Source: a virus (taxonomy: Duplodnaviria > Caudoviricetes). From it: a DNA stretch of 64,000 bases. The stretch's first letter is position 1, and every line of letters starts with the position of its first letter. The translations under genes were made by a program, and so were the position numbers. Positions 50,170 through 62,932 of the stretch are shown here, one piece after another. The stretch is from IMG/VR virus record IMGVR_UViG_3300026549_000039, positions 32,001 to 96,000 of that record; one strand, given 5' to 3'. The notes under the pieces were generated by a model that was given only the letters and a program-made list of their open reading frames with translations, ran no database searches and was not told the origin of the DNA.

Positions 50170-50204
50170 TTTTTACACTCCTTTTGCAGCCGCCGCGCCG
50201 CCCT

Positions 50205-50337
50205 TTTTTAAACCAGCAATCTGGTAGCGGCGGCGGGTAAATTTTTAAACCAGCAATCTGGTAGCGGCGGCGGGTAAATTTTTTAAACCAGTCGTAGGTA
50301 ATGCTTGCCAGCCGCTGCCAGATTATTAAACCAGCAA
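50205..50337. repeat. Two exact tandem 37-bp repeats plus partial direct and inverted copies
   Basis: TTTTTAAACCAGCAATCTGGTAGCGGCGGCGGGTAAA at 50205-50241 and 50242-50278; partial TTTTTAAACCAG to 50291; imperfect inverted CAGCCGCTGCCAGATT at ~50309-50324; TTAAACCAGCAA at 50326-50337. Confidence 0.9.
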
Positions 50338-50418: not shown

Positions 50419-50470
50419 TTTTCTTTTAAAAAGACTTTTATAATATACTTTACTTTATAAAATGAAAAAT
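50419..50470. other. AT-rich tract (candidate DNA-unwinding element) of a putative replication origin
   Basis: TTTTCTTTTAAAAAGACTTTTATAATATACTTTACTTTATAAAATGAAAAAT, about 40 bp from the iterons. Confidence 0.7.
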
Positions 50471-50510: not shown

Positions 50511-50640
50511 CCCCACATCAGATAGACCAGATCCCCACATCAGATAGACCAGGCTCCCCACATCAGATAGACCAGGCCCCACATCAGATAGACCAGATCC
50601 CCACATCAGATAGACCAGTCCCCCACATCAGATAGACCAG
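50511..50640. repeat. Iteron array: six identical 20-bp direct repeats
   Basis: CCCCACATCAGATAGACCAG starting at 50511, 50533, 50556, 50577, 50599 and 50621 (periods 22, 23, 21, 22, 22). Confidence 0.93.
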
Positions 50641-50681: not shown

Positions 50682-51602
50682 TTACTTTTGCTGTTCAACT
50701 TCTAGCTGTTTAGAAGTAACCGCCAGGTGTACACCATTGCTGGTCACATCGAGTAGCGTATATGCACCACACCCTTCAATAGCTGGTCTAAGGGTATAGT
50801 CTACCCAGCTCACCATACCTCTCCTCCACCCACGGTTATCATGGGTAGCTGTTTCAAAGGGAGGCAGCGTTGTGAATCTATACAGCAGATTGAATGGCAT
50901 TATGTATTCATTCTGTCTCTGCTCATAGTTCATTTTCCTGTCTAATAACAGGAACCTGTTTACGGAGAAGGCATGAATGCTGCGTTTCCTACCAAACTGG
51001 TACATCTCCCTATGTACTACTAGAGGAGACGGTGTTTGTGCTTCCTGCAATCGGGCTACTATGTCATAAGTAAGGGTTACTTTATAAGCATAACCATCAC
51101 ACGTAGCAGCAGACACCACACTAATAGGCTGCTCAATCGCGTGCAGGGTATTGTAAGCCGCATCAAGCCTGGTTTTGTACTTTCTTCTGGATCGTGTAAC
51201 AGCATCACTAGATGGGCCTGATCCTTTCGGATAGACCATCTCAGCAATACCGTTCAAGTTTAGATCCACAGTAGGGATCCAGTTTTGGTTTGGAGAGTTT
51301 ACTGAATTGAGTTTGATGATTGCTGACATAAGAAAATCAGCAATCATAGCAACATCCTCCTTACACCCTGCTGTTAAGAGAGCGTGAAGAATGTCGTTTC
51401 CAGCTTTGTTTTGGTACACTTCTATCCTGTTGTTCATCGAGTCCACCACCAGATAACAGCACAATATTTTGTCCTGCTTTTCAGAAGGATAAAACTTCTG
51501 TTCTATGTTATGAACCCGTTGATATCTATGGAGTTTTGGTTTATAATAAGCTCCGTACTCGGGTCCAGCTCCTGAGTGCGTCGCCTTCCTCAGCTGACCC
51601 AC
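50682..51602 (-). CDS. Putative replication initiator (Rep, winged-helix-like)
   Basis: Ends about 40 bp from the iterons; 306 aa; TVDLNLNGIAEMV...RRKYKTRLDAAYNTL resembles the first WH of plasmid initiators. Start codon uncertain (no SD). Confidence 0.55.
   Translation of the reverse strand: MGQLRKATHSGAGPEYGAYYKPKLHRYQRVHNIEQKFYPSEKQDKILCCYLVVDSMNNRIEVYQNKAGNDILHALLTAGCKEDVAMIADFLMSAIIKLNSVNSPNQNWIPTVDLNLNGIAEMVYPKGSGPSSDAVTRSRRKYKTRLDAAYNTLHAIEQPISVVSAATCDGYAYKVTLTYDIVARLQEAQTPSPLVVHREMYQFGRKRSIHAFSVNRFLLLDRKMNYEQRQNEYIMPFNLLYRFTTLPPFETATHDNRGWRRGMVSWVDYTLRPAIEGCGAYTLLDVTSNGVHLAVTSKQLEVEQQK
51519..51547 (+). promoter_or_regulatory. Sigma70-type promoter antisense to the putative rep gene
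   Basis: TTGATA (51519-51524), 17 bp, TATAAT (51542-51547). Confidence 0.7.
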
Positions 51603-51663
51603 TGAGGTGGCAACTATAGGCCCGATTTGAGCAATCCCTTTTGGGCCTATTTCTTACTATTGC

Positions 51664-51672
51664 ATTATAGCA
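51664..51672 (-). promoter_or_regulatory. Extended -10 promoter candidate for the putative rep gene
   Basis: TGCTATAAT on the minus strand, about 60 bp upstream of GTG 51602. Confidence 0.45.
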
Positions 51673-51730
51673 TACCAGCTCTTCTGCTGTGTGGGCTGAC
51701 CCTCGCGTAGTAGACTAGCGGTATTGATGA

Positions 51731-51756
51731 GCCGGGCTTTCACCCCGGCCTTTTTT
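51731..51756 (+). terminator. Intrinsic terminator with the U-tract on the plus strand
   Basis: GCCGGG-ctttcac-CCCGGC-cTTTTTT. Confidence 0.75.
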
Positions 51757-51967
51757 ATACCTTCAAGCATTCATGGTCCCTAAACCACATACATGACCAT
51801 ACACCGTCAAAGACCTGTTTACCTTTTCTGTAATGTACACACCTGTTTTGTGCAAAGTAACCTAAAGGGCAGGTAGGCAGGTCTAAATCCAACCCTAACC
51901 TATAGTCATTGGCTTTTTTAGGCTTTACTGTACCACCTATGTCACGATTCTGCCTTAATAAGTTCAA
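51755..51967 (-). CDS. Small Cys-rich hypothetical protein
   Basis: Coupled to the primase gene; CPLG...C...C...C. Confidence 0.55.
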   Translation of the reverse strand: MNLLRQNRDIGGTVKPKKANDYRLGLDLDLPTCPLGYFAQNRCVHYRKGKQVFDGVWSCMWFRDHECLKV

Positions 51968-52950
51968 ATATCAGCACCTACCTGTTCCATTACCTGTCTA
52001 AGCGTAGATATCTTGTGGCATGATGTAGAGGTGCAGAAGAACATACCAAAGTAGTCCGAGTTTGGGTTAATATCCAGGTATGCTGATGGATGCCTGTCAT
52101 CATGAAACGGGCAGCAGCATATCACTTTACCACCTGCTCTACCGTAAGCCTTATAACCAGCACCATTTAGAACACCAACTACATCCACATGTTCAATGAT
52201 ACTCATGGCATCCTCTTTTACCTTCATACGCCTGGAAGTGAACTCGGCATCCATAGGCTTGAACTTCTGGTACATGTTCTGCCTAAGTTTCTGTAGCTCC
52301 TTACTCTCACACCTACCCAGGGCTGACTTCATATCATCTACCTTATAATAGTATGTCCTATTAGGAAACACTGGAAGAGACTTATTGATTGACTCAAACA
52401 CCATTGTGTCAACCATAACAGCTGGTTTCCTGGTATTCCTGGAATAGAAGTTCAAGCACTGCATGGGTAGTATACTCCTGGTATCAGCCTTTATACTAGC
52501 CTTCATCAGTGAAGCAGGATAGGCATAATCAAAGGCAGACATGGGCCTGTCCAGCACCCAGTACAGATGCCATCCGTTACCAGTTCGCACAGCAGAGGTA
52601 GGGGGTATCCAATCACAGAACTCATAGAGGGTAGCATCCTGTACCTGCCTCTTCTTACCTGCCCACTCCCCTCTATCATAATCAAAGTCCATAGCAACAC
52701 ACCATGCCTTCTCGACGCCTACAAGGCTCCTGTTAGGGGTATTGTACAGTCCCGCTGTACTCCTAACAACCTCTAGTATCTTCTTCAGGCCTGGATAACG
52801 TTTAGGCATCTCGGCCACAGAATAGAAGAAAGCAGGGTTGTTTGCACCAGTATCAGGACCAGCAAACATCTTGTCAGACTCTCCAGCAAAGTGCTGTGAT
52901 AAAAACTCCATAAACAGAATGTCTACTCCCTTGTCCACAACATCCATCAA
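51964..52950 (-). CDS. AEP-superfamily (RepB'-like) primase with a C-terminal CHC2 zinc finger
   Basis: Motif I AMDFD, motif II PPTSAVRTGNGWHLYW; C-terminal CPFHDDRHPSA...FFCTSTSC. Confidence 0.78.
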   Translation of the reverse strand: MMDVVDKGVDILFMEFLSQHFAGESDKMFAGPDTGANNPAFFYSVAEMPKRYPGLKKILEVVRSTAGLYNTPNRSLVGVEKAWCVAMDFDYDRGEWAGKKRQVQDATLYEFCDWIPPTSAVRTGNGWHLYWVLDRPMSAFDYAYPASLMKASIKADTRSILPMQCLNFYSRNTRKPAVMVDTMVFESINKSLPVFPNRTYYYKVDDMKSALGRCESKELQKLRQNMYQKFKPMDAEFTSRRMKVKEDAMSIIEHVDVVGVLNGAGYKAYGRAGGKVICCCPFHDDRHPSAYLDINPNSDYFGMFFCTSTSCHKISTLRQVMEQVGADI

Positions 52951-52965
52951 GATGCCTCTCCTCTC

Positions 52966-52994
52966 TTGACAAGTGTAAGTATTTTGCTTACAAT
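52966..52994 (+). promoter_or_regulatory. Sigma70 promoter with an overlapping palindromic operator
   Basis: TTGACA (52966-52971), 17 bp, TACAAT (52989-52994); GTAAGTA-ttt-TGCTTAC at 52975-52991. A possible divergent TTGCTA-16-TATAAT lies at 52998-53025. Confidence 0.8.
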
Positions 52995-62897: not shown

Positions 62898-62932
62898 TTG
62901 ACAAAGCAGTCATGGGTAAGTATAATACTTAC
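62898..62932 (+). promoter_or_regulatory. Perfect-consensus sigma70 promoter with a palindromic operator over the -10
   Basis: TTGACA (62898-62903), 17 bp, TATAAT (62921-62926); GTAAGTA-taa-TACTTAC at 62916-62932. Confidence 0.85.

Follow-up and report, generated by a model that had tools for sequence, protein, structure and literature searches.

A conserved candidate small RNA transcribed against the replication initiator gene of a large uncultivated phage

Does the spacer in front of a phage replication initiator gene hold an RNA that is transcribed against that gene? The locus in question lies in a 64,000-nucleotide stretch of DNA (the window), which covers bases 32001-96000 of the 146-kb IMG/VR virus record IMGVR_UViG_3300026549_000039, estimated to be 86% complete. 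Near the locus the long open reading frames (ORFs) lie on the minus strand as far as a junction near 53.0 kb, where the gene directions diverge. An earlier note, made from the sequence of the window, had proposed a hidden structured antisense RNA of about 200 nt on the plus strand, over the 5' end of a putative initiator gene (rep). For the analysis, the window was compared with four metagenomic phage loci (L011, L014, L002 and L015). The sequence comparison supports a separate small RNA gene on the plus strand, with a conserved promoter and terminator, retained helices and a strand bias of its G-U pairs. With moderate confidence, we read positions 51554-51756 of the plus strand as a separately transcribed non-coding RNA of five hairpins, a cis-antisense countertranscript that would hold down initiator synthesis together with its convergent promoter. 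The anatomy of the RNA gene, its conservation and its strand bias, as well as the fold of the initiator and the iterons, were computed; the regulatory effect on rep we infer from the position of the RNA only.

The antisense promoter, P(as), was found at positions 51519-51547 of the plus strand. As the earlier note had seen, it reads TTGATA-17-TATAAT and thus matches the consensus at 11 of 12 positions. The RNA predicted to start from it, on the basis of fold and comparison, comprises about 203 nt (51554-51756, plus strand), its 5' end being placed within +/-2 nt. It ends in an intrinsic terminator (51731-51756, plus strand), GCCGGG-7-CCCGGC followed by T6, which is conserved in five loci. The terminator stem (51731-51749) has six G-C pairs and a 7-nt loop, and the T6 tail described earlier (51751-51756) is present on the plus strand only; no T run was found on the minus strand beside the hairpin. 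Thus, a G+C-rich hairpin directly before a U run, the mark of an intrinsic terminator, is formed on the plus strand. As expected of a countertranscript, the RNA has its own predicted promoter and terminator opposite the initiator gene and within its spacer, and this layout is kept in four homologous and six analogous loci. Throughout the 64-kb window, four sites on both strands matched the promoter consensus at 11 of 12 positions or better, compared to about one expected from first-order Markov resampling. The other three matches are all on the plus strand (52966-52994, 62898-62926 and 32754). The positions of 52966-52994 and 62898-62926, close to divergent gene junctions, would suit strong early promoters.

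How the RNA relates to the coding sequence depends on where the initiator gene begins. Fold and homologue alignment place the RepE/pi-type initiator gene, encoding 251 amino acids, at 50682-51437 of the minus strand. Its start is the ATG at 51437: eight related proteins align from residue 1 and have an N-terminal VYQN motif in common. The homologues measure 234-256 amino acids, and the 306-amino-acid ORF is over-extended; an in-frame extension to the GTG at 51602 is blocked by stops 3-5 codons upstream in L002 and L015. The spurious GTG (51600-51602, minus strand) falls within the second helix of the RNA. Consequently, the promoter does not lie inside the rep ORF, and the RNA does not run over the 5' end of rep, as had been claimed; it lies in an untranslated spacer and covers no start codon. 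The RNA gene occupies this 317-bp spacer (51438-51754) between the initiator gene and a small cysteine-rich gene. The antisense promoter is situated 82 nt upstream of the initiator ATG, the 5' end of the RNA at least 117 nt upstream. The RNA is oriented against both the initiator gene and the cysteine-rich gene, the latter of which comes after a primase gene, and the stop codon of the cysteine-rich gene overlaps the final two T of the terminator tail.

Folding of 205 nt of the plus strand gave a minimum energy of -82.9 kcal/mol (z -5.3), and none of 200 shuffled sequences folded equally well. The minus strand of the window also folds far beyond its shuffles (z -4.5), and hence the fold energy of the window alone cannot choose the strand. 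Helix 1 (51554-51580, plus strand) begins at the predicted transcription start. It is followed in the minimum-energy fold by helix 2 (51583-51611, plus strand; GCC..CCUCAG / CUGAGG.GGC) and by helix 3 (51616-51650, plus strand; AUAGGCCC.../...GGGCCUAU), the stem of which is invariant in five loci. Helix 4 (51672-51724, plus strand) is a long irregular hairpin closed by AUACC/GGUAU, with five G-U pairs in the window. The stems GUACUCGGG/CCUGAGUGC (two G-U pairs), CCUCAG/CUGAGG and AUAGGCCC/GGGCCUAU, all named in the earlier note, are present in this fold. However, CCUCAG/CUGAGG does not cover the rep start codon as had been thought, the true start being the ATG at 51437. Likewise, the closing stem AUACC/GGUAU of the distal element was recovered, but the element folds as a single long irregular hairpin rather than as a multibranch. 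A proposed alternative pairing, GGGUCCAGCU/AGCUGACCC, is confined to the window: L011 and L014 carry an inverted helix-2 loop, and L002 and L015 have exchanged the entire helix.

The RNA block is 95% identical in L011, 89% in L014 and 78% in both L002 and L015 (blastn). While the block thus retains 78-95% identity across the four loci, the initiator proteins of L002 and L015 are merely 52-55% identical to that of the window. The stretch between promoter and ATG is unalignable, yet a -35 GTTG and a -10 TAnAAT stand in register in all four relatives, and the first hairpin begins about 7 nt past the -10 box in all five loci. All helices are retained in the relatives, some via changed sequence, and so is the terminator. 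Promoter and pairing, whose joint absence from homologues had been named beforehand as telling against the RNA, are therefore both conserved in L011, L014, L002 and L015. A covariance model of the RNA (R1) scored 208-243 bits for the four homologous loci. In the model-fitted alignment, 89.7% of cells were paired, as opposed to 32-46% with slid partners, and nine pairs were changed on both sides, five of these in helix 4. In the window, pair 3 of helix 1 is A-U; L002 has G-U there and the additional copies of the hairpin found in L011 and L014 have G-C, and pair 2 is U-G, U-A or C-G. In L002 and L015, helix 2 is another hairpin, GCCUACCAG/CUGGAUAGGC, at the same position. Helix 4 exists in two unrelated sequence versions, each of them a long hairpin, L014, L002 and L015 carrying the version unlike that of the window; all three substitutions between the window and L011 maintain pairing via G-U. 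The loops, which in a countertranscript would make kissing contacts, vary in sequence: the helix-1 loop is variable and 7-12 nt long, and the helix-2 loop is inverted in some loci.

Strand preference was seen across the five loci. The plus and minus strands folded with -82.9/-80.2, -118.4/-102.2, -127.7/-109.2, -88.4/-76.6 and -88.8/-75.8 kcal/mol, the plus strand being more stable by 3-18 kcal/mol in five of five, and the plus strand formed 9-13 G-U pairs compared to 5-6 on the minus strand.

Several lineage-specific rearrangements were observed within the RNA gene. A 71-nt insertion immediately after the antisense -10 (L011:3852-3922 and L014:2818-2888, minus strand; window 51548-51553) repeats hairpin 1 in tandem two more times, each copy measuring about 35 nt and bearing compensating changes, so that three hairpins stand at the 5' end; even so, the first of them begins about 7 nt past the -10 box. 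The helix-2 loop at 51594-51601 (CTGACCCA) reads TGGGTCAA in L011 and L014, seven of eight bases being the exact reverse complement, and the flanking sequence is near-identical between the window and these loci. To judge by the sequence, this looks like a palindrome-mediated loop flip. Furthermore, only L011 and L014 carry a perfect 10-bp palindrome, GAAGCGCTTC, between the antisense -35 and -10 (window 51525-51541), which may be an operator; the window has just GATATC at this site.

Six more distant loci (L006, L013, L009, L010, L012 and L059) encode primases 64-66% identical to that of the window, and their spacers are without sequence similarity to it. At that spot and in that orientation, all six nevertheless have predicted RNA genes of like layout, with an extended -10 promoter followed by between one and three hairpins and then a G+C hairpin with U tract. 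Their RNAs, of about 75-144 nt (about 140 nt in L006 and L013, about 75 nt in L009, L010, L012 and L059), cannot be aligned with that of the window. The L006 RNA folded with z -5.5 and its complement with z -3.5. The terminators of L006 and L013 are different hairpins with a U tract, two pairs being changed on both sides between them, and both loci have a GGCCC/GGGCC hairpin that resembles helix 3 and is of equal rank. Model R1 found only the five close loci; it detected a single copy in the window and missed all the distant analogues, and homology among the three RNA classes is therefore not established. When metagenomes were scanned with the primase profile, L059 and a locus of 33% identity (L060) were the sole additions.

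The identity of the downstream gene was examined by fold. An AlphaFold2 model of the 251-amino-acid protein, built from nine homologues, reached a predicted local distance difference test score of 88 and a predicted template modelling score of 0.86. The top 44 Foldseek matches were all pi, RepE or Rep, with a probability of about 1. VIA-align superimposed the model on RepE54 with Z 12.4 and a root-mean-square deviation of 3.9 Å over 196 of 216 RepE54 residues, and on pi with Z 11.6, while unrelated folds start near Z 6. Both searches were headed by iteron initiators alone, which filled the first 43 entries. The model thus has the two-winged-helix fold of RepE/pi (Rep_3-like) initiators. After the gene lie six exact copies of a 20-bp iteron with a 22-bp period (about 50511-50640, plus strand), adjoining an AT-rich tract; direct repeats of about this length and period next to the gene are those expected of cognate repeats, to which the protein would putatively bind. 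Hence, the earlier label of a putative initiator was borne out, and the assignment as an iteron-type initiator with adjacent iterons holds by the fold of the model. Akin to RepE of mini-F and pi of R6K, the locus combines a two-winged-helix fold with tandem 20-bp repeats at a 22-bp period adjoining the gene. It differs from them in that the protein matched no Pfam family at E <= 0.01 and no PDB sequence by profile at E <= 10, and in that no iteron-like or half-iteron operator was found in the initiator leader. RepE represses itself at a half-iteron operator at its promoter. The lack of such an operator in the leader leaves room for RNA-based control.

The initiator evolves fast, with 24-31% identity where the primase has 64-76%, and the iteron sequence changes alongside it across relatives: L014, L009 and L004 have repeats of equal period and place that differ in sequence. 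In L004 (5050-5163), the 22-bp iterons start inside the 3' end of the initiator gene and encode a repeated GISEGG tail, and therefore origin repeats and protein C-terminus overlap. Beyond the iterons of the window, on the side far from the initiator, a 37-bp tandem repeat of 2.3 copies and an AT-rich tract (50204-50291 and 50420-50470) are probably part of the origin.

How could the RNA meet an initiator transcript? A probable sense promoter, with an extended -10 TATGCTATAAT on the minus strand (51664-51674), was read by eye within the spacer. The 16-nt block that holds it (51660-51675) is invariant in five loci, and a minus-strand TATAAT, mostly after TGn, occurs at the matching place in the six distant loci. 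This promoter prediction puts the start of sense transcription near 51657, which would give an overlap of about 103 nt with the RNA, helices 1-3 included. No minus-strand terminator was found between the small ORF and the initiator gene, and therefore read-through transcripts would be complementary to the whole RNA. The expression of the RNA, its pairing and its effect on the initiator are predictions, which may be pictured as follows. A promoter of host type would drive the RNA against the initiator and cysteine-rich genes. Initiator mRNAs from the internal minus-strand promoter would begin with about 103 nt complementary to helices 1-3, and read-through transcripts of the primase operon would contain the complement of the entire RNA. 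Through its hairpin loops the RNA could pair with these sense transcripts, so that the duplex would be cut or expression blocked, and the strong antisense promoter could also interfere head-on with sense transcription. Initiator synthesis, and hence origin firing, would in this way be held down or timed.

Several observations weigh against such a countertranscript. The RNA reaches neither the ribosome-binding site nor the ATG of the initiator gene, its 5' end lying 117 nt upstream, and a search of the leader for an attenuator-like terminator on the sense strand found none; the route from pairing to lower translation is therefore unclear. Thus, the access to a ribosome-binding site, leader peptide or attenuator that is expected of countertranscripts was not seen, and complementarity of the RNA to the translation start region of the initiator was no better than for shuffled sequences. 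The sense promoter is without a good -35. In L003, whose primase is 76% identical, the initiator gene is present and other genes replace the RNA and the small ORF, so that the RNA is dispensable for this type of replicon. Moreover, the comparative set is small (five loci, effective number 1.19), and the pair counts given above come from a model-fitted alignment and are biased toward structure.

Some of these points would sit well with a genuine plus-strand RNA that works in trans, on an mRNA of the host or of the phage, or that serves as a multi-hairpin protein decoy, its location being incidental. An RNA of this kind need not reach the initiator ribosome-binding site, short of which the RNA stops, and could be absent from L003. 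Hairpin 1 is triplicated in L011 and L014, as would be expected of a module that binds protein or RNA. The short RNAs of L009, L012 and L059 share a conserved pyrimidine-rich motif, CUCCUUUCC-like, with complementarity to a Shine-Dalgarno sequence, and CCUUCCUC is present in helix 2 of the window; however, this anti-Shine-Dalgarno-like motif is lost in L002 and L015. When the 146-kb genome was searched for a second copy or a trans target, only chance-level matches were obtained, the best being 13 nt at E 0.35. Three RNA classes that cannot be aligned agree in position, in orientation and in having a facing sense promoter, which argues that location matters. We regard action in trans or as a decoy as unlikely. 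Alternatively, an oop-like RNA might have the upstream operon as its real target, pairing with the 3' end of the message of primase and small ORF or terminating and processing it, without setting initiator levels. The terminator abuts the stop codon of the small ORF in the window, and in L006 inspection of the reading frame placed it inside the last codons of the small ORF, resembling oop over cII; in lambda, O-P mRNA stability is unaltered by oop (PMC3985674). Against this, coding sequence is overlapped by merely 2 nt in the window, and the RNAs of L009 and L012 stop ahead of the facing sense -10 and do not come near the small ORF. An effect confined to the upstream message therefore appears improbable to us.

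A more radical possibility is that no plus-strand RNA is made at all, the hairpins being DNA sites for single-strand initiation or protein binding, or the structured leader of the minus-strand initiator mRNA, with the plus-strand promoter and terminator incidental. The region does lie within a replication module, loop inversions such as that of helix 2 in L011 and L014 are typical of DNA palindromes, and the minus strand folds far better than its shuffles, with z of -4.5, -4.2 and -3.5 for the window, L002 and L006, respectively. Nevertheless, promoter boxes and a hairpin with U tract are kept on the plus strand in every lineage, even where the terminator sequences differ. Many of the G-U pairs would become A-C mismatches on the minus strand, substitutions pass via G-U, and the plus strand is the more stable in all five loci. 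The origin with its iterons and AT-rich tract lies about 0.9 kb away on the opposite side of the gene, and the RNA would be transcribed away from it. On these grounds, we consider a purely DNA or leader element very improbable, and the countertranscript remains the reading that we prefer.

No Rfam family accounts for the locus. At gathering thresholds, Rfam matched neither the window nor nine related loci, and over 1.3 kb at E up to 10 no countertranscript RNA (ctRNA), CopA or RNAI family was found; the best sub-threshold scores were 14-22 bits compared to cut-offs of 43-50. The suggestion that the RNA may belong to a novel phage small RNA family is hence a fair one. The window contained no tRNA or tmRNA in a dedicated search. 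Blastn of the region gave no match among public phage records, single-protein scans of IMG/VR gave nothing, and the primase profile there found remote primases only. The invariant 16-mer had 43 matches in IMG/VR, none of which matched the region by blastn, and these were taken as chance. No relatives, prophages included, were found in 185,579 bacterial and archaeal species genomes.

Other identities for the locus were considered and set aside. Neither ParA (AAA_31 family) nor ParB nor a tyrosine integrase was found in the 146-kb record at its 86% completeness, and a plasmid-prophage lifestyle was rejected on this ground; with no prophage relatives found either, nothing backs the notion that the RNA controls copy number as in plasmids. 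A ToxI-like toxin-antitoxin RNA, prompted by the tandem 35-nt hairpins, was dismissed as there is no plus-strand ORF after the terminator. A role as primer RNA for the iteron origin is unlikely, the RNA being terminated and directed away from the origin. In L002 (4027-5274, minus strand of the locus), a gene for an IS605-type TnpB of 415 amino acids, with OrfB_IS605 and Cas12f1-like domains, is inserted between the cysteine-rich ORF and the primase stop; it does not occur in the window, L011, L014 or L015. It prompted us to consider an IS200/IS605 guide RNA or transposon end, which was rejected since the insertion lies beyond the small ORF and the other loci are without it.

Upstream of the RNA gene, the small cysteine-rich gene (51755-51967, minus strand; 70 amino acids) begins with a TTG that overlaps the TGA of the primase-like gene (51964-52950, minus strand; 328 amino acids), and its product appears to be translationally coupled to the primase. 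The primase-like protein matched the CHC2 zinc-ribbon (E 5e-05; 23.5 bits, slightly below the Pfam cut-off of 24.9) and PHROG 47, DNA primase, and had 19 homologues. The cysteine-rich protein matched no Pfam or PHROG family. It measures 59-81 amino acids across loci, follows the pattern C..G...C..Y.K...C.WF...H.C, and its sequence is kept in the distant loci L006, L009, L012, L013 and L015. The protein could assist the primase or regulate the adjacent promoters. The DNA at 51757-51963 is more conserved than the RNA block because this conserved protein is encoded there, and a second non-coding element at this place was thus ruled out.

Antisense control of initiator genes is textbook knowledge for plasmids, and its phage example is lambda oop. 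Large uncultivated phages have, to our knowledge, yielded very few small RNAs so far. In lambda, the oop promoter pO is convergent with pR and lies just upstream of the initiator gene O; it lowers origin-directed transcription from pR, and oop is an antisense RNA whose action depends on RNase III (PMC3985674). Akin to pO/oop, the locus has a short terminated antisense transcript, as predicted here, whose promoter lies just upstream of the gene for an iteron-binding initiator, which is convergent with an operon reading into the initiator, and whose 3' end just reaches that of the upstream gene. However, oop is 77 nt long and overlaps the 3' end of cII, whereas the RNA described here is about 200 nt long with five hairpins and overlaps an ORF by about 2 nt. 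Unlike in lambda, an internal sense promoter faces the antisense promoter, the initiator has a RepE/pi fold, the iterons come after the gene rather than inside it, and there is no sequence similarity.

Plasmid loci offer further parallels. The gene order is like that of copB-copA-repA in R1 and copG-RNAII-repB in pMV158, by established knowledge and by PMC5717011 and PMC4485353: a small upstream gene is co-transcribed with rep, a sense promoter lies internally, and the leader between the genes gives rise to an antisense RNA that has stem-loops at its 5' end and stops at an intrinsic terminator. However, the plasmid RNAs CopA (about 90 nt) and RNAII (about 48 nt) block either a leader peptide or the ribosome-binding site of rep, and the RNA here reaches neither; R1 and pMV158 are plasmids, whereas the element here is a phage of at least 146 kb, in which a role of the cysteine-rich protein as repressor is without support. 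The ctRNA in the repB-repC spacer of repABC and the Rfam families pGA1, pND324, pT181 and p42d are alike in being terminated antisense RNAs in an intra-operon spacer just upstream of the initiator. They differ in size and shape (about 50-90 nt, one or two hairpins), and none matched at E up to 10. Thus, the kind of element is known, and what is new here is the sequence family and the unusual element that hosts it.

The three unalignable RNA classes and the swaps within a class (helices 2 and 4, copy number of hairpin 1) accompany lineage-specific iterons. A speculative reading, to which we give little credence, is that one swappable specificity cassette is made up of the RNA with the facing promoters and of the fast-evolving initiator with its iterons, the RNA acting as an incompatibility determinant between co-infecting related phages. 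The RNA of a resident phage would then shut down the initiator of an incoming relative with an identical leader, and the cysteine-rich protein might be a CopB-like third component.

The locus presents a well-bounded, conserved RNA gene without an Rfam match in a replication module that joins a plasmid-type RepE/pi initiator and its iterons to a phage primase and helicase. If the RNA throttles the initiator, it would show how origin firing is timed or limited in such phages, and a compact RNA regulator with naturally diverged variants would be gained. Otherwise, a candidate for a new family of phage small RNAs in need of a target remains.

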